From the IMG/VR virus record IMGVR_UViG_3300049595_005065: a DNA stretch of 64,000 nucleotides. One strand, 5' to 3'. The DNA comes from a virus (Duplodnaviria; Caudoviricetes). Numbering within the stretch: position 1 is the stretch's first letter; every line of letters starts with the position of its first letter. Below, piece after piece: positions 3,498 to 62,532 of the stretch. The position numbers were made by a program, and so were the translations under genes. The notes below the pieces were generated by a model. The model did not search any database. It had not been told where the DNA came from and saw only the letters and a program-made list of their open reading frames with translations.

Positions 3498-3893
3498 ATG
3501 GCAAGTACGATTTGGTCGGGCGAAACGACGTTTGAAGCTACGAGCGGCTCGCAGGCCGTGGTCCCGATTCGGGTGCCCCACCGCGGCATCATTCGCGGCT
3601 ACAGTTTGACGCAAACCAGCGGCGCCAACGCCGGTGCGGCCGCGGCGCTGTATACCAGCAAGCAGGACACCGCACCCAACAGCGGGCTGCCCGCCGAGGC
3701 GTTCCACATTCTCGACATCACGCTGCCCGCCGCAGCCAAGGTTGACGACCACAGCGCCGAGGTAGCGTACATCAATCGAGACGGCACCCCTACGAACCCG
3801 CAAAGATATCTTTACCTGAAGATCACCCCGGCGGGCACGGGCGCCAAGAACTTCGTGTTCTCGGTGACGATTGAAGTCCCGAAGATGGGCTGA
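3498..3893 (+). CDS. small beta-rich hypothetical (probable virion) protein
   Basis: 131-aa ORF, AAGGGTG upstream, TGATG coupling to the next gene. Confidence 0.7.
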   Translation: MASTIWSGETTFEATSGSQAVVPIRVPHRGIIRGYSLTQTSGANAGAAAALYTSKQDTAPNSGLPAEAFHILDITLPAAAKVDDHSAEVAYINRDGTPTNPQRYLYLKITPAGTGAKNFVFSVTIEVPKMG

Positions 3894-4822
3894 TGCTCCA
3901 AGCACTTCGTGATAACCCGCGCCGCGCGCCGAACTGGCGCTGGCTGCGGGCTGTTCAGATCGACGGCGGCGGCCCCAAGGCCACCCGCGCTATGGACGGC
4001 GAGGAGGGCTTTGCCTGGATCCGCCGCGCGTCACGCATGAAGCGCCGCTACGAAAAGGCGGGCAACCGCCCCGACGCCCTGTACCGGTTGGTCCAATACG
4101 ACCGGGACATGTTCTGGGCGCACTCGCTGTGGCTGGACGACAAGCAGCCCACGCGCTGGGCCATCGAGGCGTGCATCCTGGCGGGAGAAGCCACCGCCGT
4201 GATCGCTGAGCGCCTGGGAACCAGCTCGACGATCATCGAGGCGTATGAAAAGGTGTTCTTCGACGTCCGGGACCGGCTTGAAGAGAAACTTTACATCGTC
4301 AACGTGGTCATGGCGGACGCCGTGACCCGCGGCGTGTCCGAGCGGCAGTACGACCTGCTCTGGAAGCTCTTTGGCTACCACGGCGGACCCCACGTGCTGG
4401 ACGCGGTGATTTCCAAGGTTTCGCCAATCGCCAAGCCGGAGCGGTCGGACGACGTCGGCCAGTTCTTCCAGGACTTCGCCGTGAACACCGTGAAGCACAA
4501 GGCGGCCATCGCGACCCTGACGGTGCCCATTAACACCCACACCCAGCTGGCAATCATTGACAGCTTTGTGCAGTACTCGCAGATCGAGAAAACCAGCGAG
4601 AACGCCGGGAAGGCCCACGCCACGATCGTCGAGAACATTGGCGCCATGCTGGGCGCTTTGCCCTTCAAAATCGGCACCAAACTGGATTCGGCGACCGACA
4701 AAATGTTACCGTATGACAATGGCGCGGCTGAGCTGCGCAACGACGAACTCATGATCGTGGCTGCGGGTGGTAAACTATCTACCCAGCGAGTCATTGAAGA
4801 CCTGCGGTTTCCGGGAGAATAA
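3893..4822 (+). CDS. hypothetical protein
   Basis: 309-aa ORF, start overlaps the previous stop, typical codon bias. Confidence 0.75.
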   Translation: MLQALRDNPRRAPNWRWLRAVQIDGGGPKATRAMDGEEGFAWIRRASRMKRRYEKAGNRPDALYRLVQYDRDMFWAHSLWLDDKQPTRWAIEACILAGEATAVIAERLGTSSTIIEAYEKVFFDVRDRLEEKLYIVNVVMADAVTRGVSERQYDLLWKLFGYHGGPHVLDAVISKVSPIAKPERSDDVGQFFQDFAVNTVKHKAAIATLTVPINTHTQLAIIDSFVQYSQIEKTSENAGKAHATIVENIGAMLGALPFKIGTKLDSATDKMLPYDNGAAELRNDELMIVAAGGKLSTQRVIEDLRFPGE

Positions 4823-4824: not shown

Positions 4825-6159
4825 ATGCAGCCCCTGTCCAAGGCCGCCGAGGCCAAGCTGATCGGCGCCATCGAGCGCGCGGCGGCTTATGTGAACGACG
4901 GCATGGCGCCCAATGACGCCATCGTGAAGAGCGCCTCGGAATCGAACGTCCCGTCGGGGCACATCAACCTCATGGTCCACGCCTACAACACGGGCCGGAC
5001 CACGAAGCAGCGCGAGCAGGGCAACGACACGCTGGAGAAGGCGGCCGACTTCCCCCTGGCCGACGCGCAGAGCGTGCTCGACACGCTCTACCCCAAGGCC
5101 GTGAAAACCTCCGCCGAGATTTCACGCGCTCATGTGGTGTCTGCAGAGTACGCAGTCGACCCCGCTGGGATGCTGGCCCGGCGTAAGACCGCTCAGACCA
5201 AGGCGGCGGCCGCAAAGATATCTTTGCCCGAGAAGACGTGGGTTGCTCCGCCGCGTGACGAAGAGGCCGCCGCCCGCCGGGCTGCCTCTGAGAAGCGCGC
5301 CGCAGAGCTGGCCCAGGAAGAGCTGCGCCGCCAGGCCACAGTCGCCTACAGCAAGGCAGCTGCGGCGATGGAGGAGCTCCACGAGTATTTCCGTCATCCG
5401 GGCAATATGAGTTTTCAAGACGCGATGCGCGAGACCGAGCTGCGCTATGGCGAGGACGGCGTGAGCGTGCTCAACAAGCTCGCCGCTGTCTATCCACATT
5501 TGACGAAGCAAGCCGCCACCCAGGACGTGTTTATGGGCGAGTGCCAGCCCTGCAAGCTGGCCGCCGCCGTGCTCAACGCGCTGGAGGCCTACAACGAGGC
5601 GCAGGCGCGGGTGCCTGTGGCGAAGCAGGCTGCGTCAAAAAAAGCTGAACCGGCCGTGGTCACGGGAAGCATCCTGTACAACCCGGCCGACGAGCCGCTG
5701 ACGCTCAAGAGCGCCGCGCCCACTACTGCGCCTGAGCCTTCGCTCATGGCTGCGCCCGCAGCAATTGGACAGCGTATGGTTGGGACGCTGGATTTTTTGG
5801 ACCCAAGAGACCCGAAAGACTTGTCGCAGGGGGCCTACAAGGATCTGACAGACCCCGCACACGCGACGGAACTACAGAACATCCGGGCGCAGGGGGTGCT
5901 TCACGACTTGCTCCTCAATGACCCTGTAATCTCCGGCCACGATCCCCATGACGTCACCCTGGCTTTCAACGAAATCGCCGAAGTGGCGCCGCAGTCGGTG
6001 AGCTCTCCGGCGACGATGCAGGCTTTGCTGCGCAAGCGCCTCGAGGCGGGCGCGATGGCTGACTTTGATGTTGCGCAGTTGGTCAACATGGAAAAGGCCA
6101 AGGCGGAAACGGAAAAGAGTCGCCTGGACGCGCTGAAAACCGAAATGGGCCTTATCTGA
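4825..6159 (+). CDS. Ala-rich helical head-module protein (K-x-A-rich)
   Basis: 444-aa ORF 2 nt after the previous stop; many KAA/KSA/KQA motifs. Confidence 0.75.
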   Translation: MQPLSKAAEAKLIGAIERAAAYVNDGMAPNDAIVKSASESNVPSGHINLMVHAYNTGRTTKQREQGNDTLEKAADFPLADAQSVLDTLYPKAVKTSAEISRAHVVSAEYAVDPAGMLARRKTAQTKAAAAKISLPEKTWVAPPRDEEAAARRAASEKRAAELAQEELRRQATVAYSKAAAAMEELHEYFRHPGNMSFQDAMRETELRYGEDGVSVLNKLAAVYPHLTKQAATQDVFMGECQPCKLAAAVLNALEAYNEAQARVPVAKQAASKKAEPAVVTGSILYNPADEPLTLKSAAPTTAPEPSLMAAPAAIGQRMVGTLDFLDPRDPKDLSQGAYKDLTDPAHATELQNIRAQGVLHDLLLNDPVISGHDPHDVTLAFNEIAEVAPQSVSSPATMQALLRKRLEAGAMADFDVAQLVNMEKAKAETEKSRLDALKTEMGLI

Positions 6160-10629: not shown

Positions 10630-10631
10630 TT

Positions 10632-10674
10632 TCACACGGATCTGTGATTCCTACGAAAAAGACATGGAGGTCTT
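10632..10674 (+). promoter_or_regulatory. tandem CsrA-type hairpins upstream of the 10678 gene (TCACA-CGGATC-TGTGA and AAGAC-ATGGAG-GTCTT)
   Basis: Two 5-bp stems with GGA in the loop; the second carries the SD. Confidence 0.65.
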
Positions 10675-10677
10675 AAC

Positions 10678-14286: not shown

Positions 14287-14471
14287 AAACGCGCCAAAAC
14301 GCAGGCATATTTAGTGCCCATGGTTTTGCTGCCGGGGCGCATTCCCCCGAGCTAAACGGCGCGGTAGTATCACGCCTATCTGTGAAAAGGGGGAATAGAT
14401 ATCTTTGGGCGCCCGACATTCGGGTTGCCTGCGCGCTGGGCGCCACCCAGTCACCTGTGAAGGAGCCGACC

Positions 14472-15050: not shown

Positions 15051-15097
15051 AAAAGCGCCCGCGCACTGCCCTTCGGGGCGGTCGCGGCGTTTTTCTT
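15051..15097 (+). terminator. intrinsic terminator with cUUCGg tetraloop
   Basis: ACTGCCC-TTCG-GGGCGGT core, extended stem, followed by TTTTTCTT. Confidence 0.85.
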
Positions 15098-15129
15098 AGC
15101 TATCAGCGCTCGCCAGTTACAATAACGCT

Positions 15130-16437
15130 ATGTCGAGCTTCAAACGCCTATTTCCGTTCCGCCAGGTGGCCGTGGATCACATGGTCCGCGGCGTCACCCG
15201 GGTCTGGTGGCAGCTGGAGCGCAACTTTAACGACCCTGGCCCGTACGTCTTTCAGCTCCAGTACGGCAATACGCCGCTGAACGACGCGGCCGACTGGCGC
15301 AACGTCGGCAGCCCGGTCACCGACGGCTACGTGGCCTACGACGACGTCTGGCGCGCCGCTGGCACAGACATCGTCACCCATTACCGGGTGACCCTGACCA
15401 CGCCCAAAGATATCTATGTCAGCGCCCCGGTGAACTGCTTCGGCGAGCTGGCCGAGCGCGACTGGAACATCGCCCGGGAGATCATCCGCAAGGAACAGCT
15501 CCGCCACAAGTACGTCTCGGTCTCGGGCTACCTGATCAAGCCGTTCCGCTTCGGGCGGCCCTGCGCCCGCTGTCGCGACCAGCTCACCGGAGAAGTGCTG
15601 GACAGCAACTGCCCGGTCTGCTCGGGAACGGGCTTCGAGGTTGGTTACCACCCGGCGCTGCCGCTGCAGTGCTGGGACGTCGAGCCGTACACGATCGAGG
15701 AAGACCAGAATCCCAACGCGTTAGGCACGACCCGCTCCAAGCACATGACCAAGGCGCGGGTGGTCGGCTTCCCCACGCTGAACACCAACGACATCTGGGT
15801 CAACGGAACCTCCGACGAGCGCTGGATCATCCACAGCATCAAGGTAGCCGCAGCCATCCGGGGCGTGCCGCTCGTCTACGAAGTCGAGATGGGCCTGGTG
15901 CCCCTGACCAACGCGATCTACGCCCTGGAAGTCGGCGGCGAGCCTCCGGAGCGCCCAGGGCCGACATTGCCGATCCTGGGCTGCGGCTCTGTGGTGGTCG
16001 ACCACAACTACGGCGGCGTGGACAACCTCGTCTACCGGGACGCGACGCATTACAGCATTGTCGGCGCCAACGTCTACGTGTTCCCCAAAGATATCTTTGA
16101 CGCCGCCTACCCGGATCTGCCTAACCGCAATCTGGCCGTCGCCGGGACCACAACCCGGGTGAACGGCCGCTGGACGGAGTCGCTGCGCCTTAACCCGGGC
16201 GACTACGCGCTGATTTTCGAAAAGCCCGGCGAATGGGGGCCGGACACCGACTTTATCACCGTGGTCCCCTCCGACGCCGAAAGCTCGTTTACCTGGGTGC
16301 CCGTGGTGACCCTGGCGGCCGAAACGAGCGACCCAATTCCCGAGGCCGACCTGGCGACCGAGTCGAGCGAGGCTGTTACCACTGAGACCGAGGATAAGGT
16401 ACGCGCGCCGTTGGGCGACGATTTCTGGAACTTCTAG
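15130..16437 (+). CDS. probable neck/head-closure protein with CxxC...CxxC zinc finger
   Basis: CARCRDQLTGEVLDSNCPVCSGTGF; located between the neck adaptor and tail completion genes. Confidence 0.5.
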   Translation: MSSFKRLFPFRQVAVDHMVRGVTRVWWQLERNFNDPGPYVFQLQYGNTPLNDAADWRNVGSPVTDGYVAYDDVWRAAGTDIVTHYRVTLTTPKDIYVSAPVNCFGELAERDWNIAREIIRKEQLRHKYVSVSGYLIKPFRFGRPCARCRDQLTGEVLDSNCPVCSGTGFEVGYHPALPLQCWDVEPYTIEEDQNPNALGTTRSKHMTKARVVGFPTLNTNDIWVNGTSDERWIIHSIKVAAAIRGVPLVYEVEMGLVPLTNAIYALEVGGEPPERPGPTLPILGCGSVVVDHNYGGVDNLVYRDATHYSIVGANVYVFPKDIFDAAYPDLPNRNLAVAGTTTRVNGRWTESLRLNPGDYALIFEKPGEWGPDTDFITVVPSDAESSFTWVPVVTLAAETSDPIPEADLATESSEAVTTETEDKVRAPLGDDFWNF

Positions 16438-17399: not shown

Positions 17400-20225
17400 A
17401 TGTCGAGCTACGTCAAACCACAAGTTCTCGTTTTCCAGGAATTCACGATCGTCCCGACGGAGATCACGGAGCCGCTGCGCGCTCACGTCTCCGGCCCGCA
17501 TGCCGTCCTCCATCGCTACAGCGATGTTGACGAGAAGCCGCTGTGTCGGCTCGGCGCGTACGACTACCTGAACGACGTTTGCTACCCGTGGCCGGGCCGC
17601 CTGGCCGGTTCGCGCGTCGATCAGGGCTATACGAAGCTCCACATCGACAACGCGCTGCTCCTTTATTACACCCACACGATCGGCCAGGTTTCCACGACGG
17701 TCACGGCCGTCGAGGGCCGCTCGAACTGGATTTACGCCAGCAACCTCAAGTTCAAGAGCAACGGCGCGACCTATGCTCGCAGCGATGTGTTCGGCGACCG
17801 CGACGTCCAGCTGGGCGACGTGGTGCAGCTCCGCACCGTAAGCCAGGACAACGACTGCGAGGAAGTCACTCTCGAGACGATCGTCACCGGCTTCGCCAGC
17901 GAGATGGTCGCTTCGGATGTCGATGCCGCGCGCTCTGACGACGACAACCAGGACACCGTCGCCTCGACGACCGCCAGCATCTCGAAGACCGCGGGCCCGG
18001 ACAACTGCATCGTGGCTACCGTGAGCGCGAGCGGCTACACCGGCCTCGTCGACGGTGACGTCGAGGAGGAGTACACGATCGAGGTCATCAAGAGCTCGGT
18101 CCCCGGCTGCACCGCCGCGCGCCTGCGCGTCACGTCGGCCAGCGGCAACGACGATGTGGCCGAGGTCACTCCCGCCGAGCTGTGGGGCGACCCGACCGAG
18201 ATCGGCACGCGCGGCCTCACCGTGGCGTTTGACTACGACCCCGGCCTGAGCTGCTCTTCGGCCGCGGACGATGACGACGTTGAGCCGGACGCGCTCGTGG
18301 TCGGCCAGAAGTGGGTGGTGACCGTGAGCCAGGCCTTCACGAAGGTCGAGGCGACATCGGGCGGCACCTACACCGGCGCCAAGAACGACGTCTACGTTGT
18401 GGAGTGCACCAAGGGCGGCCTGTGGGCTGATCTCCCCGAGATCACCGTGCGCACCGTGAAGGGCCTCGACTTCTCGGGTCCGACCGAGGTGACCGACGAC
18501 AACGTCACGGTCGACATCGGCTCGAGCGGCGTGAACATCGAGTTCCACGGCGCCACCAACGGCAGCTCGATCCCCGGGCTTCGCAAGGGCGACAAGTGGT
18601 ACATCACGGTCACCTCGAGCCAGGCCGGTCCGGTCCGCAAGCTCATCCTCCGGGATGACCTTCCGGTCGCGATGCGCTCGGCCGAGGACATGGACCTGCG
18701 GCTTTACATCAAGGACGACATCGAGGTTTCGCTCAATCGCGTCGGCTTTGCGCCGATGACGAATTACGAGCAGGAAGCCACGCAGATCTGCGTCCATGAG
18801 GGCATCGTTGCCTACCATCCCGAGTGGACGGACGGCGGCGTCGAGCAGCCGCTGGAAGTGCGCGCGGGCGATCTGTACGTGACCTACCGCGAGTGGCTCA
18901 GCGAGCTGGCCGACGAGGTCAACTCGATCAGCACCGTGGCGGACCTCGACCAGATCAAGGGCCAGACGCACCCGGACAACCCGCTGAAGTACGGCGTCTA
19001 CAAGGCGCTGTCCAACAGCAACGGCACTGTGGTGAAGTACACCGCCGTGGCCGAGCCGGAAGACCTCGACAGCTGGGTTCAGGTGCTCGAGCGGATCAAG
19101 GGCCGGGACGACATCTACAACCTCGTCCCGATGACCTTCGACCGACGGGTGCACAACCTGTACGCGGCGCACATCAACGGCGAGTCAAACGAGATCAGCA
19201 ACAACTGGAAGGGTGGTTTCTTCGGCCTGCAGGCCGTGACCACCAAGAAGCTTGTCGGCGAGGGCGCCGCGATCGCGGGCGTCTCGGGCAACACGATCAC
19301 CGATCCGGTGCTCGCGACGCTCTCGGACGATCCGAACGCCACGGGCGCCGACCAGTTCACGCTGCTCCAGGTGACCGAGGGCTCGGGCTACTTCATCACC
19401 AACGGCGTGCAGCCGGGTGACGTGGTGCGCTACCTCTACACCGTGGACGGCTTCGGCGAAGAGCAGTACCAGGAGTTTGTCGTGGATCAGGTGATCTCCG
19501 AGAACTCGCTGCTTCTCTACTCCGGCGCCGCCGCGGCCGTGACGGAGCCGCAGCGCTTCGAGATCTACCACACCCTCAACCGCAACGAGGTCGCGGACGA
19601 CCTGGCCGAGCAGGCCGGTTCGCTCTCGAACCGTCGCGTGTGCGCGGTGTGGCCGGATCAGGTGGGCGAGGCGGGCACGCTGGTGGCGGGTTACTACCTC
19701 GCCGCCGCGCTGGCCGGTCTGGCGTCGGGCGTTGTCCCGCACCAGGGCCTCACGAACGTGGAAGTTGCGGGCTTCGACGACTTCACCCGCAGCTACAAGT
19801 ACTTCAACGAGACCCAGCTGAATCGGATGGCCGAGGCAGGAGTGTGGATCGTGACGGAAGACCGTGACGGTACGCCGCACTCGCGGCACGCGCTGACGAC
19901 GGATAACCTCGACCTGAACCGTCGGGAAGAGATGATCCGCCGCAACGTGGACTCGATGTCGTACCTGTTCCTGCGTCGTCTGCGTCCGTACATCGGCCGC
20001 GCCAACGCCACGCCGACCATGGTCAGCGTGCTTGGGGACGAAGTCACGGCCCTGATCGACTTCTTCAAGACCAACGGAGCTACGGCCGAACTGGGTTCGC
20101 AGCTCATCGACGGCGAGATCCGCATCCTGCGCATCCACCCGTTGCTTCGCGATCGGATCGAGATTGTGCTCGATCTGACGGTCCCGGCCCCGCTCAACAA
20201 CATCGAACTCCACCTTGTTGTCTGA
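17400..20225 (+). CDS. tail sheath protein (large, 941 aa)
   Basis: Typical sheath C-terminus (RRNVDSMSYLFLRRLRPYIGRAN...DRIEIVLDLTVPAPLNNIELHLVV); followed by a 157-aa tube-sized gene. Confidence 0.85.
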   Translation: MSSYVKPQVLVFQEFTIVPTEITEPLRAHVSGPHAVLHRYSDVDEKPLCRLGAYDYLNDVCYPWPGRLAGSRVDQGYTKLHIDNALLLYYTHTIGQVSTTVTAVEGRSNWIYASNLKFKSNGATYARSDVFGDRDVQLGDVVQLRTVSQDNDCEEVTLETIVTGFASEMVASDVDAARSDDDNQDTVASTTASISKTAGPDNCIVATVSASGYTGLVDGDVEEEYTIEVIKSSVPGCTAARLRVTSASGNDDVAEVTPAELWGDPTEIGTRGLTVAFDYDPGLSCSSAADDDDVEPDALVVGQKWVVTVSQAFTKVEATSGGTYTGAKNDVYVVECTKGGLWADLPEITVRTVKGLDFSGPTEVTDDNVTVDIGSSGVNIEFHGATNGSSIPGLRKGDKWYITVTSSQAGPVRKLILRDDLPVAMRSAEDMDLRLYIKDDIEVSLNRVGFAPMTNYEQEATQICVHEGIVAYHPEWTDGGVEQPLEVRAGDLYVTYREWLSELADEVNSISTVADLDQIKGQTHPDNPLKYGVYKALSNSNGTVVKYTAVAEPEDLDSWVQVLERIKGRDDIYNLVPMTFDRRVHNLYAAHINGESNEISNNWKGGFFGLQAVTTKKLVGEGAAIAGVSGNTITDPVLATLSDDPNATGADQFTLLQVTEGSGYFITNGVQPGDVVRYLYTVDGFGEEQYQEFVVDQVISENSLLLYSGAAAAVTEPQRFEIYHTLNRNEVADDLAEQAGSLSNRRVCAVWPDQVGEAGTLVAGYYLAAALAGLASGVVPHQGLTNVEVAGFDDFTRSYKYFNETQLNRMAEAGVWIVTEDRDGTPHSRHALTTDNLDLNRREEMIRRNVDSMSYLFLRRLRPYIGRANATPTMVSVLGDEVTALIDFFKTNGATAELGSQLIDGEIRILRIHPLLRDRIEIVLDLTVPAPLNNIELHLVV

Positions 20226-23734: not shown

Positions 23735-23744
23735 GGAGGCGACT

Positions 23745-31522: not shown

Positions 31523-31526
31523 AGCC

Positions 31527-37203: not shown

Positions 37204-37210
37204 TCGTTAA

Positions 37211-44019: not shown

Positions 44020-44973
44020 ATGCCCCGTCCAGGTTTCTACAACGACAACGAATACCGCGCCTACCCTTTCGTTTTTCGGACGAGCTATCCGGGGCCTGCG
44101 CTGCCGGACGCCGCGATCGTAGACGCCGGGCTGATCATGGGCCTGGACAGCGGCTACAACCCCGCCGAGCACAGCGTCTGGCTGTCCTCGATCTCCAGGG
44201 CGGGCGGCGTGCTGACGTTCACCTTTGCGTCCGACGCGCCCGGCGCAGCGACTCAAAACCTCTCGTTCGTGTGCAGCACCGCCGCGGAGGAGTGGCTGTC
44301 TGTGTTCGGCGAATCGGGCGTGATCGCCGGTGTTCCCAGCGCGTGCGACCCGGCGCCCATTTGGGAAGGTTTTCTCGTGGTCGGCGCGCTGGCGACGCTG
44401 CTGGAGCAGATCGCAGACAACTCAACGGTCACGTACCCCAGCCAGGCGCGCGTCCTCGAGCCGGGTCGCGTGCAGAGCCTGCTGAAGGGCTACCTGCGCA
44501 GCGTCAACGTGGGAAACTTCACGCGCGTCCGTGCGCTGCCCGCGCCAGAGTGCGACGACAGCTCGACCGCGGTCGACGAAAATGAAGTCGTCGTGAATGC
44601 CACGTGCATGCAGGGAAACATCCGTGTCAAGGAAGGCTACCACTGCCGCATTCGGCAGATCGAGCGAACCAACGAGATCAACATCTCCGCGGATCGCACC
44701 GCGGGTGACACCGAATTTAGCCCGCTGTGCGAGCACGGTGGAGACCTGCCCCTTTACGATGACGAACCGTTTGACGCAGCCACTGGTTTCTATGGCGGCG
44801 GCCCGGCGTGCAACCAGGTAATTTCTGCCATCAACGGCATCGGCGGCCCCAACGTTTCGCTGATTGCGGGGACGGGCGTAACAATCACCACCAACCCCAC
44901 GGATAAGACCATTACCATCGCGCTTGCGCAGAACAACCTCGTGGGTGGTTGCGGGACGGAGGCTGGGACGTGA
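44020..44973 (+). CDS. fibre/baseplate paralog 5
   Basis: [11 protein letters not shown]...AIVDAGL; [12 protein letters not shown]. Confidence 0.65.
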
Positions 44974-47534
44974 TGACCGGACCTGTCGATCCCATTTTCG
45001 ATCCGAACAAGTGCGGTTTGGGCCCGGTCCCCAAGCCTCCGGTGCAGTTCGTCATCGATTGCAACATCGATGAGCCGCCGCCGCCGATCTTCGACTGCGA
45101 ACCGCCGAGCATTCCGCGCGAGCCGCCACCGCCGCCGTGCCCCGAGTTCACCGGCGAGGTCACGGTCACCGCCGCGCCGCAAACCTGCTCCGGACCCAGC
45201 GAGCCTTCCGGCGCTCTGCTGATCACCAAGGTAGACAACGACCCGTGCCGCTTTTCGATTGACCTAGACCTGGACATTCCAATTCCGCCCGCGCCGTGCC
45301 CTGAAATCAAAGAGGGCGAGGTTACGGTCAACGTTGGTTACGCCGGAACAGGTGCTGGGTGCGTTTCTGAGGCTACCGGCGCCATTATTATCACGCCGCT
45401 TCCCGAAACTGATCCGTGCAGCGACAGCGATGAACCAAGGTGCCAATTCCAGATCGATCTGAACCTGGACATTCCGATCCCCCAGCCGGTGTGCCCCGAG
45501 ATTAACGAAGGCACGGTCAGCGTCAACGTTGGCTACAGCGACTGCGTGTCCGGCGCCAGCGGCGGGTTCACGATCACCAAGAACGAGATTGAAGGAGACT
45601 GCAACACTCCGCCGACCTGCTCGTTCACGATCGACCTGGATTTGGACATCCCAATCCCCAAGCCGGTGTGCCCCGAGATTAACGAAGGCACGGTCAGCGT
45701 CAACGTTGGCTACAGCGACTGCGTGTCCGGCGCCAGCGGCGGTTTCACAATTACCAAGAATGAGACCCCCGGAGATTGCGACACTCCACCGACCTGCTCG
45801 TTCACGATCGACCTGGATTTGGACATCCCAATCCCCAAGCCGGTGTGTCCAGAAATCAACGAAGGAACGGTCAGCGTCAACGTTGGCTACAGCGATTGCA
45901 TCTCGGGCGCTAGCGGCGGGTTCACGATTACCAAGAATGAAACCCCTGGAGATTGCGACACCCCGCCAACCTGCGATTTCACAATCGACCTAAACCTGGA
46001 CATCCCGATCCCCAAACCGGTGTGTCCGGAGATTAACGAAGGCGCGGTTAACGTTAACGTCGGCTACAGCGATTGCGTGTCGCAGGCAAGCGGTGGTTTC
46101 ACGATCACCAAGACGGAAACGCCGGGTGACTGCGATACGCCGCCGACCTGCTCGTTCACGATCGACCTCAACCTGGACATCCCGATTCCCAAGCCGGTTT
46201 GTCCCACGTTCAAGGAAGGTGCCGTCAGCGTAAACGTCGGCTACGACGACTGCGTGCCGCAGGCAAGCGGTGCGTTTACGATCAGTAAAACCGAAACAAG
46301 CGGCGACTGCGACACTCCACCCACGTGCGAGTTCACGATCGACCTTGACCTGGACATCCCGATTCCCAAGCCGGTTTGCCCGACATTTTCCGCATCGGGC
46401 ACCATTGCTTTTGGCGCGCCATCCATCTCCGTCAACGGAAACGTCAACTCAACGCCTGGCGACTGCGACACGCCGCCGACGTGCGACATCACGCTGGGCG
46501 TGGATGTTGTTGTTCCCAACCCCGCGTGCCCCGTCATCAGCGGCGCGATCAGCGTTTACGAAGCAGAAGAACCTACCGGCACGGTTACCGTTACCAAGAA
46601 CGAAGGTCCCAGCGGCGCGTGCGAATTCAACATTGAAATTGATATTGGGGTGCCCAAACCAAAGTGTCCCGAGATCAGCGGTTCAATCAGCGTTTATGAA
46701 ACGGAAGAAGAGCCAACTGGCACTTTTTCTGTTACTAGCGGTGAAACAGCGAGCGGCATTTGCGAATTCAACATTGAGATCGCCATCGGGGTACCCAAGC
46801 CGTCGGGCGTCACGGGCCCCACCGGCCCCAGTGGCCCGAGCGGGCCTAGCGGTCCTTCTGGACCTAGCGGCGCAAGCGGGCCGAGCGGCCCTTCCGGACC
46901 CAGCGGCCCTAGCGGTGTCGGTGGTGCTACAGGTCCAAGTGGACCTAGCGGACCCAGTGGTCCGAGCGGCCCTCAAGGTCCGAGCGGCGTGGATGGCATC
47001 CCAGGCGCTACAGGTCCAAGTGGACCTAGCGGCCCTCAAGGTCCGAGTGGCGTGGATGGCATCCCAGGCGCTACAGGTCCAAGTGGACCTAGCGGCCCTC
47101 AAGGTCCAAGCGGCCCAGAAGGCCCTAGCGGCCCCAAGGGCGACCCCGGCGAACCAGGACCGTCTGGCCCTGGCGGCCCCAGTGGCCCGCAAGGCCCCAG
47201 CGGCCCAGCAGGTCCAAGTGGACCAAAGGGCGACAAGGGAGACACAGGCGACCCCGGGCTGCCCGGACCTAGCGGTCCCAAGGGCGACAAGGGAGACACC
47301 GGCCCCAGCGGCCCGAAGGGCGACAAGGGCGACCAGGGCGACCCAGGCGCGCCTGGTTCGTCTATTGTGGGCCCACCCGGGCCGCCAGGGCCGCCTGGGC
47401 CGAGCGGGCCGAAGGGCGACAAGGGCGACCCGGGCGACGACTGCGTCAAGGTCCCGGTGACCGTGCTGACTGGCATGTCGTGTTCCGGCGGAAACTTGAT
47501 TGCAGACACGACGACCATCGAGGTGTGCGAGTAA
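44973..47534 (+). CDS. fibre protein with 59-aa Cys-containing tandem repeats and a collagen-like (Gly-Pro-Ser) domain
   Basis: TGATG-coupled; repeat [22 protein letters not shown]...[10 protein letters not shown]; G-X-Y run from about 46806 to 47433. Confidence 0.8.
45479..46380 (+). repeat. 177-bp (59-aa) coding tandem repeat, five full copies plus degenerate flanking units
   Basis: Equivalent anchor positions at 45485, 45662, 45839, 46016, 46193 and 46370. Confidence 0.9.
46965..47107 (+). repeat. 63-bp near-identical direct repeat within the collagen domain
   Basis: AGCGGCCCTCAAGGTCC starts at 46965, 47028 and 47091. Confidence 0.85.
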
Positions 47535-52081: not shown

Positions 52082-53992
52082 GTGGCGCAGCCCCGACGGT
52101 TCGTGCTCAGCCACAAGCGTGCGCCCGGCGACACGATCGTCATGACGGCGCTCGTTCGGGACCTGGCGCTGGCCTACCCCGGCCAGTTCGAGATCGCCGT
52201 GGACACCAACGCCGCGGCCTTCTGGGAGAACAACCCCTACATCGTCCCCATGCGGGACATGAAGGCGCACTCGGGCGTGCGCAACGTCCGGCTCACCTAC
52301 GGCCAGGGGCTGCGGGACCAGCGCCAGGAGACTGTTCATTTCCTTGCCTATTTTCACAGGGACTTCAAAGCCCAAACCGGCATCCAGGTCCCGCTGACTC
52401 TTCCATACCCGGACATCCATCTGAGCCCCGAGGAACGCGCCCAGAGCCCCGTGGAGGGCCGCTACTGGGTGTTTCTCTCCGGGGGCAAGTCGGACTTCAC
52501 CACCAAGGTCTGGGGCGCCCAGGCGTGGCGCCAGACGGTCCAGGCGCTGACCGGCCTGGGGATCCCCCTGGTCCAGATCGGGGCGGCCAGCCAGGGGCAC
52601 TGGCACCCCGAGATCCCCGGCGCGCTGAACCTGGTCGGACGCACCGACCTGCGCGACTGGGTGCGGCTGGTTTACCACGCCGACGGGGTGATCTGCGGTG
52701 TTACCGGCGCCATGCACCTGGCGGCTGCCCTGCAGCGCCCCTGCGTCGTTCTGGCGGGCGGCAGGGAAGCCTGGTGGTGGGAGGCCTATGTCCGGGAGAA
52801 CGCCGGTCTGGGAGGCCTCCAGACGGCGCAGCAGCTCGCCATGCCCCACCGATTCCTCCACACGATCGGCCAGCTGGACTGCTGCCTGGCGCACGGCTGC
52901 TGGAAGAACAAGGTCCTGCCCATGAACAGCGACCCGTCCATCTGCAAATACCCGGTCGTCCAGCCGGGCCAGGCGGTGGCAAAATGCCTGGACATGATCA
53001 CCCCGGAACACGTCGTCGAGGCCGTCATGAGCTATTACGAGGACCGCAGCCTACCGCCCCTGAAGCCCCTGGATGAGGTTGTACGCTACCGTTCACCGGC
53101 CGTGAACGATCCCGTTCATCCGGCCGTGTATCCGAAACTCGCCGCCGATGCCCGCCTGGCCGTAGAAGCGCCGCCCGCGCAGGCCGCTAGCCGCCCGGGG
53201 ACGGCCGAGGACAAAGATATCTTTGACCACCCGATCATCGGCGGGAAGTTCACGGTCTTCGTCCTGTTCTACGGCCCCAAGGAGTTTCACCCGCTCCACA
53301 TGCGGTGCCTGAACTCGATCATCTCGACCTGCCCGCCCAACCGGATCGACCTGCGCGTCGGCTCGAACGAGCTGTGCGAGGAGACCTGCGCCGTGCTGGA
53401 CCGCCTGGCCGAGCACGGGATCATCACCAACCACTACTGTCACCCAGAGAACGCCCTGAAGTACCCCGTGATGCGCGAGATGTTCCACGACCCGGAGCTG
53501 CCGATCACCACGAACTACCTGCTCTGGTTCGACGACGACTCGATCGCCGACCGGAACCCGCAGTGGCTCACGCTGCTCACCCAGGCGATCCTGGCCAATC
53601 CGGAGGCCGGGCTGTTCGGCGCCGACATGACGATCCGGCTGGCGGGCGCGCAGCAGCAGCTGTTTCGCGCGCGGCCCTGGTATCGGGGCAAGCCGTTCCG
53701 TCTGAAGAACAAGACCCCCGCGCCCAACGGCGACCACGCGGTGTTCGTGGCGGGCGGCTTCTGGTGCATGAAGACCGAGGCGATGCGCGCCGCCGATGTA
53801 CCGGACCCGGAGATCACGCACAACGGCGGGGACTACACGATCGGCGAGCAGCTCTATCAGGCCGGGTATGACGTTGTCGGTTGGAACCGCCAGAAGCAGT
53901 ACATTTACACGTCGAGCGTGCCGCGGCGGGGAGCGTCGCAGCCGCACTTCGGAACGACCAACTGGCAAACCCAGATACGAGGCCAACGATGA
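52082..53992 (+). CDS. two-domain glycosyltransferase: GT9 (heptosyltransferase-like) N-terminus plus GT-A/GT2-like C-terminus
   Basis: PGDTIVMTALVRDL, LVGRTDLRD..RLVYHADGVICGVTGAMHLAAALQRPCVVL (GT9 motifs); YLLWFDDDS (DxD motif). Confidence 0.8.
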   Translation: MAQPRRFVLSHKRAPGDTIVMTALVRDLALAYPGQFEIAVDTNAAAFWENNPYIVPMRDMKAHSGVRNVRLTYGQGLRDQRQETVHFLAYFHRDFKAQTGIQVPLTLPYPDIHLSPEERAQSPVEGRYWVFLSGGKSDFTTKVWGAQAWRQTVQALTGLGIPLVQIGAASQGHWHPEIPGALNLVGRTDLRDWVRLVYHADGVICGVTGAMHLAAALQRPCVVLAGGREAWWWEAYVRENAGLGGLQTAQQLAMPHRFLHTIGQLDCCLAHGCWKNKVLPMNSDPSICKYPVVQPGQAVAKCLDMITPEHVVEAVMSYYEDRSLPPLKPLDEVVRYRSPAVNDPVHPAVYPKLAADARLAVEAPPAQAASRPGTAEDKDIFDHPIIGGKFTVFVLFYGPKEFHPLHMRCLNSIISTCPPNRIDLRVGSNELCEETCAVLDRLAEHGIITNHYCHPENALKYPVMREMFHDPELPITTNYLLWFDDDSIADRNPQWLTLLTQAILANPEAGLFGADMTIRLAGAQQQLFRARPWYRGKPFRLKNKTPAPNGDHAVFVAGGFWCMKTEAMRAADVPDPEITHNGGDYTIGEQLYQAGYDVVGWNRQKQYIYTSSVPRRGASQPHFGTTNWQTQIRGQR

Positions 53993-55520: not shown

Positions 55521-55610
55521 GCCGCAGCTAAATTTTGACACAAATCACGGCATATAAGGTGTACCACCAATATTGGTTTTGGCGGTACTTCCTTCATGGA
55601 GGTTTTTGCC

Positions 55611-55982: not shown

Positions 55983-56126
55983 GCTGCGACAAAACTCCTC
56001 ACCACCCGTTCGTGGCGCGGCTGCGTAGCCGGGCACGAGCATATCTTTCTCTGATATGTTCGTGCTCCGGTTACGCAGCCCCCACGCTAGTTACCTTGTC
56101 GCTTTTTCCTTTGCTATCAGCGATTC

Positions 56127-58002: not shown

Positions 58003-58206
58003 ATGCTCGTCCTTTCTCGCAAGAGGAACGAGAAACTACTCATTGGCCACGACGTGAAGATTACGGTCGTCGAGATATTGCCCGATCGGGTTCGCTTAGG
58101 AATCGAAGCGCCAGAGCAGGTGAGCGTGGTGCGCGCCGAACTGGCCAAGAACTGGCACGGCCGCAAGAAGGCCGGAGAAAATGGGGTGGAACGACCGCCT
58201 GCCTGA
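58003..58206 (+). CDS. csrA: carbon storage regulator CsrA/RsmA homolog
   Basis: MLVLSRKRNEKLLIGHDVKITVVEILPDRVRLGIEAPEQVSVVRAEL matches the CsrA pattern ML(I/V)L(T/S)R..E...IG..V.I.V......VR(I/L)G(I/V).AP..V.V.R.E, including the RNA-binding Arg44. Confidence 0.93.
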   Translation: MLVLSRKRNEKLLIGHDVKITVVEILPDRVRLGIEAPEQVSVVRAELAKNWHGRKKAGENGVERPPA

Positions 58207-58495
58207 CTGTGAAGCAGGCTGGCCCACAGAAGAAGAGCGCCAGTCATTCTTCGACTGGCAGGAATATCAGCATTATTGCGCGATGCTCGACGCGGAAATC
58301 GAGCGCGAGTCTGCGCCGCCTGTCCCCGAACGGATGGGCATCTCTTCGCAGACCATTGACCCCGACAGCTTCGAGGGCCTGTCCAAAGATATCTATTCAG
58401 ACCGCCCCCTCACACCAAAGGAGTTTGCCCATGCCCGCAACCAAGACCAAGGCCAAGACCAAGACCAACACCAAGATCAAGGCCAAGAAGAATAG
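58181..58495 (+). CDS. hypothetical protein with a QD-repeat tail
   Basis: 104 aa overlapping csrA and the next gene. Confidence 0.5.
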   Translation: MGWNDRLPDCEAGWPTEEERQSFFDWQEYQHYCAMLDAEIERESAPPVPERMGISSQTIDPDSFEGLSKDIYSDRPLTPKEFAHARNQDQGQDQDQHQDQGQEE

Positions 58496-58784
58496 GGTCG
58501 TCGCCCAGATCACGCCTGAGACCCTGCTCAAGGACGGCGGCCTGTTCGACGCCGTGGCGCTTTTGTGCGTCATCTTCAACCGCAAGCCCCGCCGCCCGTG
58601 CGTGCGTCAGGCCACGATATTCGCCATCAGGAACATCGCGACCATGCTGCTCGCGCAGGACAAGGACGTGCCGGATCTGATGCAGCTGCTGGATCAAGAC
58701 GCGCTGCAGGAAGGCACCGGACGCTCAACCACCAGCGAGTTCGTACAGACGTTCGAGGGGAAGAAGGTCGGACGTCGCCGCTGA
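58431..58784 (+). CDS. hypothetical protein with a Lys/Thr-rich N-terminus
   Basis: AAAGGAG SD then ATG 58431. Confidence 0.6.
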   Translation: MPATKTKAKTKTNTKIKAKKNRVVAQITPETLLKDGGLFDAVALLCVIFNRKPRRPCVRQATIFAIRNIATMLLAQDKDVPDLMQLLDQDALQEGTGRSTTSEFVQTFEGKKVGRRR

Positions 58785-59897
58785 CTTCACAGCGGGCGCC
58801 AGCCCCTTCTCGGCCGCCAGGCGGTCGAGCGTCGAGGCCATGCCCCGGTCCAGGGTGGGCACGATCGCCGCGAGCTTGTCGCGGTCGAGGTACACGCCAC
58901 CGGCCGTGACGGCGTCCGCGAACTCGTCGCCCATCCAAGACCGGACATCGTCCTCGGCGAGCTTCTCGAGATCCTCGAGGTTGTAGACGTTGCCCGTGGT
59001 CGTCTCGACGTGCGCCTTCATGAAGTCCGCGGCCACCTTCTCGGTGATCGCGAACAGAACCTCTTCGGGCCGCTCCAGGCCGCCCTCGTCGTAGTAACGG
59101 TGCAGGCCGGTCGCCCGGTCGTACTCATCGACCGCGGCGGCCAGCTTGAGCCGCAGCTCCTCGCCCCGGGCTTCCTCGGGGTTGGATTCAACCACGGCGG
59201 CCAGCTTTGTCATCTCCGCGGCCAGTTCCTTCTGGCTGTGGGCGACGAGGTTGGCCCGGCCGCGCAGCATCTGGGCGGCCACCTTAGCTGCGCACGCGCC
59301 CCGGCCAGCGGCCAGCTCCAGGGTGTCGTCGGCCTCGCTCGTGTCGGCGCCGTACTCGGCCGCCTTCTCGAGGATTTTCGTGGCGATCGTGTGCCGGTCG
59401 GCGAAGGTGAACTGGTCGCGGTGCGCCTTAAAGTGGGCCGCCGCGAACTTCACCTCGGTGGCATTGCGCAGGGGCCAGTGGCGATCCTTGTTACCGGCCT
59501 CATCGGCCCACACGATGGCGAACTCGCTGTCCGGCAGACTGTTGAGGTCCGCTCCGGCAGCAGCAGCCACCTTGCCGCGGAGTTCCTTCACGAGGCCTGC
59601 GATGCCAAAATAGTTGGCAGCGGCGTCAAGCCGCTCCTCGATTTCGGCGGCCTGCTTCTCGGTGAAGGAGGCGCGCTTGTCTTCGAAGAAAAGCGCGCTG
59701 AGCCACGTTGCGGGGCCAGTGTGGCACGGATAGAGTTTGTTGAGCGGATCGGCGTACATGTGGCGCTGGAGGTTTTCACCCCCGGCAAGCCGGTCCTGGC
59801 TGGCGGACTTCACGAATTCCGGCGGCGGATAGAGAGAGGTCAGCCGATGAGTTTCCCGACCACTGATGTCTTGCGTCTGATCGAGCGGATTTAACAT
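58725..59897 (-). CDS. K-x-A-rich protein on the minus strand, probable head-packaged protein
   Basis: 390 aa from CAT 59895-59897; strong codon bias; KSAS, KQAA, KVAA, KFAA, KLAA and KSAA motifs. Confidence 0.75.
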   Translation of the reverse strand: MLNPLDQTQDISGRETHRLTSLYPPPEFVKSASQDRLAGGENLQRHMYADPLNKLYPCHTGPATWLSALFFEDKRASFTEKQAAEIEERLDAAANYFGIAGLVKELRGKVAAAAGADLNSLPDSEFAIVWADEAGNKDRHWPLRNATEVKFAAAHFKAHRDQFTFADRHTIATKILEKAAEYGADTSEADDTLELAAGRGACAAKVAAQMLRGRANLVAHSQKELAAEMTKLAAVVESNPEEARGEELRLKLAAAVDEYDRATGLHRYYDEGGLERPEEVLFAITEKVAADFMKAHVETTTGNVYNLEDLEKLAEDDVRSWMGDEFADAVTAGGVYLDRDKLAAIVPTLDRGMASTLDRLAAEKGLAPAVKSAATSDLLPLERLYELAGG

Positions 59898-62532
59898 GGC
59901 GTCGTTACCTGTTTCCCTGGTCCGCCGACACAATCATCTCAGCGCCCTGTCGGCATTGGGCGTCCTGCCGGAAAAGCCCGCTTTCCCAGCCGTGGTCGAT
60001 TGTCCTTTCTGCCAGCAGCCCCAGCTCTATCTGTTCGATGACGTGGTGACGGATGGCATCTGGGCGCACTGCGAATCCTGCCGTGCGCATGGAGATATCA
60101 TAACCTTTGGCTCGTTAATCTGGAACAATAGCCGCGCCGAGGCGCTGGCCCGGCTGGTGGACCTTGGCGCAGCCAGCCAGGGCGAGGCCGACCGTTTGTC
60201 AGGGGAGTACTTCCGCGCCATCAACCGCCTGGAAGCCACCGAAGCTTTCTGGGCGCAGGCCAGCTCGCAGGTCTGGAACCACCACGACGACGTGATCGCC
60301 TGCCGCCAGCGCGAGCTGGGGCTGGACAGCACGATTGACGCCTGCAGCGGCGTGGTCGGCGTGGCGCACGCGGACCAGGTTGCCGAGTTCTGCCGCGCTG
60401 TAGGCCGCGCCCCGCCGCCCCGGATGCGCGAGCACGGGCCGACCCTGGTGTTGCCCTATTACGACCTGCCGGGGCGGTTCACGGGCGTGCTGCTCATCCA
60501 GTACAACGATGAGTTCATGTCGCGGCGGACGTTTATCGCGCTGCAGGGCTGCCCGAAGCGCCGCGCCGACGCCGGGTACTTCATGCTTGACACGGTCCTG
60601 CGGCCCTGCAACCCGTCGCTGCGCAACTCGTACTTTGTTTCAGACGATCCGTTCTGGGTCATCAAGGCGCAGATGGCGCAGCGCAAGGCAGGCCTGGAAA
60701 CACTGCCCCTGGCGGCGAGCTACTCGGGCCCCGAGGCGGTCAGCACCGGATTGAACTGGCAGTCGTTTGCCCCCACGCCGCGGTTGTTTCACAGCGCCGT
60801 GTTAACGCCCGACGTGATCTCCCAGGCCTGCACCGCCAAGGGTTACGTCTGCGTCCTGCCCCACAAGAACGTCGAGCAGAGCGCCACGCCGATGCGCTCG
60901 CTGCAGCGCCTGGCCGTCATTCGGCGCCAGGCGCAGACCTGGCAGGCCGCGCTGGAGTCGGCCCTGGAGCGCACCAACGAGACGGCGGCGCAGTCGTTCG
61001 TGACCAAGCTCACCATCGAGCTGCCGCGTCTGCAGAACTTCTTCCAGCAACGCAAACACAACCTGCCGCCGGAGTTCTGCGCCCGGCTGCTCACGCAGAT
61101 CGAGGCCGCGCCGGGCATTCCAACGAAGGTCTACAAGAAGGCGACCATCATCGAGCGGGACGGCTGCTGGTGGACGCACACCAACCACCAGGTCTGCAAC
61201 GCCCGCCCGCAGATCCACAAGATCGTCCATTCCGAACAGGGCGAGCGGATGTACGTCGGCACGATCGCAATCAACGGCCAGGAGCTGGAGTTCGCCGACA
61301 GCGCCGCACGCATCGAGCGAATCGGGTTGCTGGCGTACGCCGCGCAGCACGCGGCAGCGCACGGCCAACTGCTCCTTTTTGACCGGCACTGGAACGCCAA
61401 GAGCCACTTGGCGGCGCTCCGGCTGCATGAGCCAGAGATTGTTCACGTCTCCGGCGAGGCGGGCTGGAACGAACAGGCCAGTCAGTTTTGCTTTCGGCGG
61501 TACGCGCTTAACAACGACGGCAGCGTCACGCCTTGCCCCTATCCGCAAATCCAGGCGACGTTACCGGACTTCCCTGAGCCGATCGAGGTGGCACCGGTGA
61601 CGGTGCATCACCTGCTGACGCCCTCATACGAACACGCCACCCTGTGGACCAGCTTTGCGGCGATCGTCGCTGACCTGCTGGCGCCCGTGCTTGGACAGAC
61701 ACCCGTGGCCAACGGGGTGGTCGGCAGCACGTTCGACACGGCCTTGTCGGTCGGCCTTGGTCTCGACTGCGGAGAGTACCGCTGCTCCAGCTCGCAGCGG
61801 CAGAACGCCTCAACCAGCGTGATCGCGCACCTGCGTGATGTGCGCTGGCCCCTGTTTGCGTTCCACGCTTTCGACGACCTGATGCTCTGCCGAACGGTGC
61901 TCCGGGTGCCCAGCGGGCCGCTCTTCGCCCGGCTCGCGGAACTGACGGCCCACCTGGCGCCTGGCTACGGCTGGCAGGTGATCCGCGGACCAAGCCTGGA
62001 CGTTCGCCCCGACCTGTCGGCGCTGCGGTACATTCTGCCGACCTACGTCCAAAGGGCGCTTACCCAGCGGATGCACCTGGCGACGCAGCGGACCAATCTC
62101 ACAACGGCGGTGCTGCAGGACCTGGCAGGGTGGCTCAAAGATATCTATGGCGCGACGTTCAACGTGGCCTACGCAACCAACAAGCTGGTCACCCCCGACC
62201 GGGCCCACGAGGCCCTGATGGCGGCGATCAACCTGGGAATTACCTCCGGCGCGCTCGACGTCCTTCCCCGGCCGCGGCGAAAGGACCAGAACGGCAACTA
62301 CCTGCTCCGGCAAAAAACAAGCTGGTGGTTGAATCAGAAGGCCATAGATCGTTACTGTATTTCTGCCGGTGGAGTGATTCCTAACTGGGCGGCAGTTACC
62401 GAGTTGCTGGCGCACCAGGGCTTGCTGAACGACGAACAGGTCGTCCACGGCATGCCGGGACTGCTGGTGAACCGAGACTGGTGTGATTCGTTCTGGAGCG
62501 ACTACACAGCAGATGCGCGCGAACTTGGATAG
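59896..62532 (+). CDS. primase-related replication protein with an N-terminal CHC2-like zinc finger
   Basis: CPFC...WAHCESCRAHGDIITF resembles the DnaG zinc-binding domain; no clear TOPRIM or Walker A seen by eye. Confidence 0.5.
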   Translation: MASLPVSLVRRHNHLSALSALGVLPEKPAFPAVVDCPFCQQPQLYLFDDVVTDGIWAHCESCRAHGDIITFGSLIWNNSRAEALARLVDLGAASQGEADRLSGEYFRAINRLEATEAFWAQASSQVWNHHDDVIACRQRELGLDSTIDACSGVVGVAHADQVAEFCRAVGRAPPPRMREHGPTLVLPYYDLPGRFTGVLLIQYNDEFMSRRTFIALQGCPKRRADAGYFMLDTVLRPCNPSLRNSYFVSDDPFWVIKAQMAQRKAGLETLPLAASYSGPEAVSTGLNWQSFAPTPRLFHSAVLTPDVISQACTAKGYVCVLPHKNVEQSATPMRSLQRLAVIRRQAQTWQAALESALERTNETAAQSFVTKLTIELPRLQNFFQQRKHNLPPEFCARLLTQIEAAPGIPTKVYKKATIIERDGCWWTHTNHQVCNARPQIHKIVHSEQGERMYVGTIAINGQELEFADSAARIERIGLLAYAAQHAAAHGQLLLFDRHWNAKSHLAALRLHEPEIVHVSGEAGWNEQASQFCFRRYALNNDGSVTPCPYPQIQATLPDFPEPIEVAPVTVHHLLTPSYEHATLWTSFAAIVADLLAPVLGQTPVANGVVGSTFDTALSVGLGLDCGEYRCSSSQRQNASTSVIAHLRDVRWPLFAFHAFDDLMLCRTVLRVPSGPLFARLAELTAHLAPGYGWQVIRGPSLDVRPDLSALRYILPTYVQRALTQRMHLATQRTNLTTAVLQDLAGWLKDIYGATFNVAYATNKLVTPDRAHEALMAAINLGITSGALDVLPRPRRKDQNGNYLLRQKTSWWLNQKAIDRYCISAGGVIPNWAAVTELLAHQGLLNDEQVVHGMPGLLVNRDWCDSFWSDYTADARELG

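Follow-up and report, generated by a model that had tools for sequence, protein, structure and literature searches.

An evenly spaced, lineage-variable palindrome in GC-rich jumbo phage genomes as a candidate genome-wide array of protein-binding sites

Why would a GC-rich phage write the same AT-rich palindrome into one gene after another? The question is raised by a 64,000-nucleotide stretch of viral DNA (IMG/VR record IMGVR_UViG_3300049595_005065; here, the window, meaning the whole stretch analyzed), which is bases 114958 to 178957 (reversed) of a 208,236-bp lake-metagenome contig from a 63% GC phage. An original prediction, made from the letters of the window, described a dispersed 12-bp palindrome, WWAGATATCTWW, and proposed that it is a site for a dimeric phage protein that organizes, segregates, protects, or packages the genome, or else a modification target. 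Here, we report that the palindrome recurs at regular intervals through related genomes, is kept at the DNA level, and exists in lineage-specific variants. That these palindromes are protein-binding sites on double-stranded DNA seems likely from their sequence features. On balance, we lean toward the fuller reading, in which a homodimeric DNA-binding protein that co-evolves with the sites reads them as a genome-wide array; the requirement would be for site density and the role chromosome scale, with operator function at a few promoters.

INPHARED held no close relative (nearest isolates, 26% identity in the tail sheath), and the sequence was matched only in assembled contigs of freshwater (lake) DNA metagenomes (no RNA runs, no raw reads). 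Related contigs in IMG/VR numbered 26, and several are complete (197 to 205 kb). Among them, G001 is a complete relative with terminal repeats (203,910 bp), and G004 (197 kb) has a sheath 77% identical to the window's.

A pattern search recovered all 11 predicted copies of WWAGATATCTWW, and 100 dinucleotide shuffles of the window gave 0. Three suspected near-copies (24321, 34137, and 43530) proved genuine, being hybrid WWWGATATCWWW sites in which one half reads T-GATATC. GATATC occurs 18 times in the window (4.9 expected), with A/T at all six flanking positions (three on each side) in 14 of the 18, the three near-copies included, and AGATATCT was the top over-represented 8-mer in an unbiased k-mer scan. 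Since C precedes every copy of AAAGATATCT (9/9), the motif is the 14-mer C-A-W-A-GATATC-T-W-T-G; this form, CAAAGATATCTTTG, is that of the window lineage, and CATTGATATCAATG is its counterpart in the G004 lineage. The sequence logo is symmetric and holds no information outside ±7, and the flanks are unique, which rules out a longer repeat or mobile element. A literature search with the motif string returned primer noise only, and an Rfam search of the window gave no match.

The sites of the window, all unstranded, are given below with the genes that hold them (all real genes of the window lie on the + strand), the peptide read, and the state of the orthologous place in relatives:

3802 to 3813: AAAGATATCTTT, gene 3498 to 3893, Q-R-Y-L; kept in G002 and G001; CAGCGTTTTCTT in G004.
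5212 to 5227: GCAAAGATATCTTTGC, a 16-bp palindrome (12-mer from 5214), gene 4825 to 6159, K-I-S; kept in G002 and G001; GC-rich codons in G004, G006, and G009.
14395 to 14406: ATAGATATCTTT, probably noncoding, with the likely ATG (14472) of a clade-specific 94-aa gene about 77 nt downstream; kept as TTAGATATCTTT in G002 and as ATAGATATCTAT in G001.
15406 to 15417: AAAGATATCTAT, gene 15130 to 16437, K-D-I-Y; kept in G002 and G001; AAGGACACCTAC (K-D-T-Y) in G004.
16087 to 16098: AAAGATATCTTT, gene 15130 to 16437, K-D-I-F; kept in G002; lost in G001 (AAAGATGTTTTT).
24321 to 24332: hybrid TTTGATATCTTT, gene 23721 to 24737, F-D-I-F; kept in G002 only.
29352 to 29363: AAAGATATCTAT, gene 29056 to 29862, K-I-S; AAAGATATCTAA in G002.
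34137 to 34148: hybrid ATTGATATCTAT, baseplate-wedge-like gene 33315 to 34958, I-D-I-Y; ATAGATATCTAT in G001; GTCGACATCTAC-type codons in G002 and more distant relatives.
34607 to 34618: AAAGATATCTTT, gene 33315 to 34958, K-I-S; kept in G002, lost in G001.
40206 to 40219: ATTAGATATCTAAT, a 14-bp palindrome (12-mer from 40207), gene 40101 to 41657, R-Y-L; kept in G002 and G001.
43530 to 43541: hybrid TTTGATATCTAT, gene 43236 to 44018, F-D-I-Y; window only.
53213 to 53224: AAAGATATCTTT, GT9-like gene 52082 to 53992, K-D-I-F; kept in G002 and G001; AATGATATCTTT in G004.
58385 to 58396: AAAGATATCTAT, small open reading frame (ORF) 58181 to 58495, K-D-I-Y, 35 nt before the start of a Lys-rich 117-aa gene (58431 to 58784); kept in G002 and G001; ATTGATATCTTT in G003.
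62137 to 62148: AAAGATATCTAT, gene 59896 to 62532, K-D-I-Y; kept in G002 and G001; G003 has AAAGATATCTAT within an 878-aa ORF taken as the orthologue.

All three reading frames are thus used (K-D-I-[FY], K-I-S, or [QNI]-R-Y-L). The original description needs small corrections: the copy at 14395 is probably noncoding, and the one at 58385 sits in a small conserved ORF that public annotation does not call.

Could coding constraints alone have produced so many copies? The original prediction had proposed a codon-preserving shuffle, and in 1000 such shuffles, with all protein sequences and the overall codon usage held fixed, strict copies in the window averaged 0.023 (maximum, 2) against the 11 observed, and copies of the loose WWWGATATCWWW class averaged 0.059 against 14. 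The same procedure gave 0.27 against 26 in the coding DNA of G001 and 0.34 against 20 coding copies of the variant motif of G004. The rough initial expectation of 0.003 copies per 64 kb was of the right order of magnitude. Chance, base composition, and codon bias are ruled out by the dinucleotide, Markov, and codon-preserving shuffles.

Selection acts on the DNA rather than the protein, as originally predicted. When ±400 nt around each window site was aligned to the relatives, the strict motif was retained at 11/11 corresponding positions in G002 and at 8 of the 10 that could be aligned in G001, at overall aligned nucleotide identities of 0.78 and 0.75, respectively. Identity inside the sites was 0.92 to 0.98 versus 0.76 to 0.78 in the ±60-nt flanks, so that the motif is retained in close relatives while the flanks diverge. 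G004, G006, G007, and G009, which are without this motif, usually encode a similar peptide with GC-rich codons at the same positions (AAGGACACCTAC versus AAAGATATCTAT); for example, CCC AAA GAT ATC TAT GTC in the window corresponds to CCC AAG GAC ACC TAC GTC in G004. Two sites (16087 and 34607) were lost in G001 and one was gained there (the orthologue of 34137), and such occasional loss and gain implies an array that turns over slowly while its density is maintained.

The array extends through whole genomes. Searches of entire records found 41 strict sites in the 203,910 bp of G001, 30 in G002 (154 kb), 18 in G003 (119 kb), and 15 in G005 (107 kb). Sites in G001 are on average 4.9 kb apart, and the coefficient of variation of the spacing is 0.56, versus 0.97 for random placement (0/5000 simulations as low); the corresponding values are 0.68 for G002 (P = 0.02) and 0.73 for G004 (P = 0.05). 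Calculated by hand from the spacings, short and long gaps are both rarer than under random scatter. Density is similar across virion, replication, and early-gene regions. The widest gaps include variable tail-fiber DNA that has no homologues in relatives or a lower GC content, as would be expected if newly acquired DNA has yet to evolve sites. The 44- to 52-kb region of the window has a lower GC content and zero strict sites.

Within G001, 63% of the copies are coding, and 15 of the 41 are in noncoding DNA, which makes up 11% of the genome (about 3-fold enrichment); this suggests that sites arise most easily where they are free of coding constraint. Coding sites lie 91 to 1632 nt from the next gene start, at no fixed distance. 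Dense arrays accompany genomes of 58 to 63% GC. The loose WWWGATATCWWW class numbers 21 copies in G009 (about 0.5 expected by a third-order Markov model), 15 in G010, and 13 in G008, and stands at background level in G007 (4 copies), G006 (2 copies), and several partial contigs (1 to 2 each).

What kind of molecule could read such a site? The variants of the motif bear on this. G004 has only 2 copies of the window motif, and it carries 31 copies of TGATATCA (2.2 expected) and 21 of TTGATATCAA (0.19 expected), with the consensus CATTGATATCAATG, most of them at places other than those of the window. At least two intergenic positions are common to both variant lineages, and at these the flanks are conserved and both half-sites have changed together. 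Upstream of a 158-aa gene (p158), AAAGATATCTTT has become TTTGATATCAAA (in context, ...gctgcggAAAGATATCTTTtcgcgcttaacg... has become ...gctgcggTTTGATATCAAAtcgcgcttaacg...), and upstream of the thymidylate kinase gene ATAGATATCTAT has become AATGATATCAAT. Further lineages fall in between, among them G003, which mixes A- and T-type halves (30 loose versus 18 strict copies). About 140 nt of noncoding DNA after the p158-associated palindrome (G002, 17427 to 17570) is nearly identical in G001, G002, and G004, genomes whose proteins are only 50 to 85% identical; this stretch may be a leader or small RNA.

The two halves of the site combine almost freely. G001 has 16 AAA..TAT, 11 AAA..TTT, 9 ATA..TAT, and 3 ATA..TTT copies, and symmetric copies number 20 of 41, versus about 17 to 18 expected by hand calculation for independent halves. 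The excess of AAA..TAT (16:3) is restricted to coding copies and is attributable to codon constraints, ATA and TTT being expensive to use; among the 15 noncoding copies the ratio is 3:2, and ATA..TAT is commonest (7 copies). Independent halves mean that one arm does not compensate for the other, which argues against a hairpin in RNA or single-stranded DNA. Such a hairpin (5-bp stem, AUAU loop), or a promoter for the phage's own RNA polymerase, would make sense of a self-complementary motif whose stem bases vary by lineage around a constant ATAT loop, in a phage that encodes the polymerase. However, 19 of the 41 G001 copies (AAA..TAT or ATA..TTT) would carry an internal A.A or T.T mismatch. For a promoter, the noncoding copies lack strand asymmetry, no flank is conserved past ±7, the coding sites lie far (91 to 1632 nt) from starts, and the genomes have a separate, strictly strand-specific intergenic promoter-like module. 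We therefore regard both versions as very improbable. A Chi-like function is also at odds with a palindrome of 12 to 14 bp whose halves change together between lineages.

A functionally symmetric site of 12 to 14 bp with halves that change in concert is the signature of a homodimer on double-stranded DNA, and the dimer part of the original prediction stands on the dyad, the independent halves, and the concerted switch. Of the functions it offered (organizing, segregating, protecting, or packaging the genome), none can be assigned; ParB_N, HU, and RHH_1 went undetected. Under the homodimer reading, about 40 high-affinity sites per chromosome of about 200 kb would be read by a sequence-specific homodimer, each monomer contacting one half-site, (C)AWA-GAT in the window lineage and (C)ATT-GAT in the sister lineage. 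Reader specificity would have co-evolved with the sites, which would make the reader probably phage encoded. Selection would maintain about one site per 5 kb in every part of the genome, placing sites in noncoding DNA or in tolerant peptides (K-D-I-F/Y, K-I-S, Q-R-Y-L) by way of AT-rich synonymous codons. Placement wherever a site is tolerated points to a requirement for density and spread and not for a fixed position relative to genes. The role would then be chromosome wide, with the phage DNA marked or organized for compaction, for looping, for recruitment to a replication factory or to packaging, or for discrimination of self from host DNA. Enrichment, even spacing, purifying selection at the DNA level, functional symmetry, the lineage variants, and their switching in place are all demonstrated by the sequences; the dimeric nature of the reader, its phage origin, and the effect of binding are inferred.

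The invariant core is also the EcoRV site, which invites a different account, in which a sequence-specific enzyme cuts, nicks, or modifies the sites at their EcoRV-like core, perhaps as a means of initiating recombination-dependent replication or of marking the DNA. Genes for recombination (RecA-, SbcCD-, and RuvC-like) and PD-(D/E)XK-type nucleases are indeed present. Against it, D12-class (Dam/EcoRV-class) methyltransferases gave no match (PF02086; other methyltransferase classes were not searched), and the PDDEXK_5 and DUF1016 nucleases do not track the presence of the array. The account also leaves the over-representation, the even spacing, and the six A/T flanks unexplained. GATATC as a whole is enriched, not avoided as a target of EcoRV-type restriction-modification might be; bare, unflanked GATATC is near shuffle expectation in G001 and G004 and low in the window (3 versus about 10 by shuffle). 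The modification target that had been proposed from the GATATC core thus finds no support here, and we consider an enzyme target improbable.

Is there a protein in these genomes that could be the reader? ParB_N (PF02195) had no match in G001, G004, G006, G007, or G009, with control genomes positive; six-frame family searches for HU and RHH_1 were also negative, and searches with HTH_3 and Sigma70_r4 gave only the helix-turn-helix (HTH) candidates listed here and a sigma factor. Candidates were set aside as follows. A 114-aa protein (G001, 107361 to 107705) fits the phyletic pattern in five genomes, yet it is present in array-poor G013, G016, and G022. A Cro/CI-type HTH protein (G002, about 137180 to 138313) occurs in all lineages, and its recognition helix differs between G001 and G002 despite their common motif. 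The helix of a small HTH protein whose gene follows a class-1 promoter (G001, 176317 to 176832; G004, 95870 to 96422; also in G005) does not track the variant, and the protein is only 26% identical between G001 and G005, genomes of the same motif. The Lys-rich 117-aa protein (58431 to 58784) is conserved with the motif and diverged in G004 but absent from dense-array G003. A 131-aa protein (3498 to 3893), 95% conserved in the clade, has a sequence that looks like a beta-rich virion protein, and a GcrA-like 255-aa protein (G001 only) and an HTH-HNH protein (G004 only) are each confined to a single genome.

Several points weigh against the homodimer array as we describe it. Its reader was not found by family searches, phyletic profiling, or inspection of promoter-proximal genes, and four candidates were eliminated by their phyletic pattern or by the conservation of their recognition helix. 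G006 and G007 are without the array (2 to 4 sites in about 205 kb), so this phage body plan can do without its function. A host-encoded reader would suit the differences between lineages in GC content and, probably, host. The reader may have a novel fold or be host encoded.

The last option can be put more specifically: a host nucleoid-associated protein or global regulator would be recruited or titrated, and the variants would mirror hosts. The failure to find a phage reader fits this, as does the way array density tracks GC content (dense at 58 to 63%, intermediate at about 55%, none at about 54%). A half-site switch between very close relatives with nearly identical flanks is easier to explain with a phage gene, and we know of no host-factor consensus that fits; the sites of FNR, Fur, IHF, Lrp, and MetJ have another spacing or core. 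There is, in our estimate, only a small chance that host-factor sites are the explanation.

The position of some palindromes next to promoters raises the question of transcription. A promoter-like module, CTAAAT(W)-N16/17-(GG)CATAT, is strictly strand specific, intergenic, and conserved clade-wide, with 7 to 12 copies each in G001, G006, G007, and G009 and one in the window (55528 to 55555); the phage sigma factor or the host holoenzyme may recognize it. A palindrome lies 2 to 23 nt upstream of three of the four CTAAAT-N17-CATAT promoters in G004 and one of the seven in G001, far above chance (by our estimate, roughly 1% per promoter). Judging from this arrangement, the predicted reader probably doubles as an operator-binding protein at some early-type promoters. 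A stronger version makes the whole array a transcription-control device, whose regulator blocks or assists elongating or initiating RNA polymerase; the sites would be stoperator-like roadblocks that spare late genes from read-through, or else enhancers or loading sites used by the phage polymerase and sigma factor. It draws on the promoter-adjacent copies, on the roughly 3-fold enrichment in noncoding DNA (15/41 versus 11%), on nearly all of the approximately 210 genes being on one strand, and on the phage having its own sigma-70-family factor as well as a fused beta-beta' RNA polymerase. Yet most sites lie deep in genes, 91 to 1632 nt from the next start; they are functionally symmetric, whereas stoperators are oriented; their positions are mostly not common to the two variant lineages; and their density is equal in early, replication, and late modules. 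As an account of the whole array, transcription control is possible but unlikely.

How does the array compare with known dispersed sites? The KorB operators (OB) of plasmid RK2 are 13-bp palindromes found about once per 5 kb, some promoter adjacent and others remote, and are bound by a dimer with regulatory and DNA-handling roles. The array resembles them in its one palindrome per about 5 kb, with some at promoters and some far away, and, like ParB-type sites of 13 to 16 bp, its 12- to 14-bp palindrome is dispersed and tolerated in coding DNA. It differs in sequence and replicon type and in its reader, as KorB belongs to the ParB family and ParB_N was undetected in these phages. The cellular sites parS, matS, SlmA SBS, and Noc NBS, which had been offered as analogues, are alike in function only: they are palindromic protein sites tolerated in genes and serve whole-chromosome processes, but they are confined to chromosome domains, and no ParB/Noc reader was detected here (MatP and SlmA were not searched for). 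Cluster A stoperators and the C1 operators of P1 comprise dozens of repressor sites, some intragenic, in temperate phages; these sites lack symmetry, and the stoperators follow the direction of transcription. They share with the array one site type scattered through a phage genome, including inside genes, but the array sites are palindromic and orientation free.

The nearest precedent is in the Cluster O mycobacteriophages (Corndog), where a 17-bp dyad repeat (TGTTCGG-N3-CCGAACA) occurs in more than 30 copies and for which a dimeric binder was predicted and a function left open (PMC4351075, Cresawn et al. 2015). Those repeats are likewise dispersed in coding and intergenic DNA, have no meaningful orientation, lie mostly away from promoters, and occur in phages that are not obviously temperate (PMC4351075). 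The array matches that description (at least 30 copies, coding and intergenic, mostly off promoters) with no homology of sequence or phage: sequence, phage, and host are unrelated, and Cluster O repeats are denser toward one genome end, whereas the array is evenly spaced, mostly coding, and written in rare codons in a GC-rich jumbo phage with lineage-specific variants. What is new relative to known dispersed dyads is the regular spacing, the creation of sites through synonymous recoding in a GC-rich jumbo phage, and the existence of lineage variants with in-place switching.

PHROG and Pfam matches identify the window as a myovirus virion module, and most clade proteins have no match in either. 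The other features placed in the window are as follows:

15097 to 15106 and 56111 to 56120, strand specific: T[TA]GCTATCAG(CGC) element, conserved in all relatives.
17400 to 20225, + strand: tail sheath (PHROG/Pfam match).
31506 to 32339, + strand: sigma-70-family factor (Sigma70_r3, 38.9 bits; weak region 4; phrog_351).
33315 to 34958, + strand: baseplate wedge-like protein (PHROG/Pfam match).
44949 to 47534, + strand: collagen-like fiber (PHROG/Pfam match).
52082 to 53992, + strand: GT9 heptosyltransferase-like gene, which holds site 53213.
58003 to 58206, + strand: CsrA gene.

The sigma-70-family gene is embedded in the tail/baseplate module and kept in all relatives. About 97% of the approximately 210 genes are on one strand in every whole genome examined (genomes of about 200 kb), a one-direction layout unusually strict for a jumbo phage. 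G001 encodes a PolA-UDG fusion, DnaB-, RecA-, SbcCD-, RuvC-, and SNF2-like proteins, thymidine and thymidylate kinases, and a 1456-aa fused beta-beta' RNA polymerase (contig 167101 to 171471; locus L035:7101-11471; minus strand). This single polypeptide joins beta (Rpb2 domains 3 and 6) and beta' (Rpb1 domains 1 and 2) into a compact fused two-barrel enzyme, and its gene sits directly upstream of the region matching the window start. The Weinheimer and Aylward paper on RNA polymerase-encoding phages contains neither "promoter" nor "strand," and "motif" there denotes protein motifs. The collagen-like (G-X-Y) fiber gene is the source of the repeated k-mers GGTCCAAGTGGACC and TGGACCTAGCGG. The dense-array clade (G001 loci L030 and L036) encodes an HldE-like kinase/adenylyltransferase, sugar epimerases, a cupin, and TylF-like O-methyltransferases; together with the GT9-like gene, these suggest that virion proteins or, less likely, the DNA are modified with glycans.

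Other small elements lie outside the array. The strand-specific T[TA]GCTATCAG(CGC) element directly follows a GC hairpin and T-run, 6 to 23 nt before start codons, and could be a terminator-promoter or processing element. TTTAGATATCA, abundant in G009, was excluded from the palindrome array as a separate element, the lineage form of the terminator-linked TTAGCTATCAG box. Short CACACGGATSTGTG hairpins with GGA in the loop (10630 to 10677 and 37204 to 37245) stand just before ribosome-binding sites and may be CsrA sites. The CsrA gene is overlapped by the conserved small ORF 58181 to 58495 (MGWNDRL...), which is followed by the 117-aa gene; the product of the latter, with Lys-rich N- and C-terminal tails, was found only in the window, G001, G002, and G004, and an unrelated basic 97-aa protein occupies its slot in G003.

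A more speculative extension of the homodimer reading, tentative and in our judgment doubtful, is a self-marking lattice, in which a phage protein would read evenly spaced tags to tell phage from host DNA and to organize, protect, or replicate the phage chromosome. Lineage-specific pairs of tag and reader (AAAGAT, ATTGAT, or mixed) could then act as an incompatibility barrier between co-infecting relatives, and the lattice, if real, would represent a type of cis-acting genome architecture new to viruses. Dispersed palindromes in lytic phages were reported earlier, in Cluster O, and never explained. This clade is a better handle on them, offering dozens of natural genomes with a dense, intermediate, or no array and two clean specificity variants, and its measurable spacing constraint and synonymous recoding make the predicted reader searchable and the function testable. 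If the lattice marks or organizes the viral chromosome, it would represent a new principle of large phage genome handling; if it is a regulator array, it would show how a 200-kb one-strand genome is controlled.

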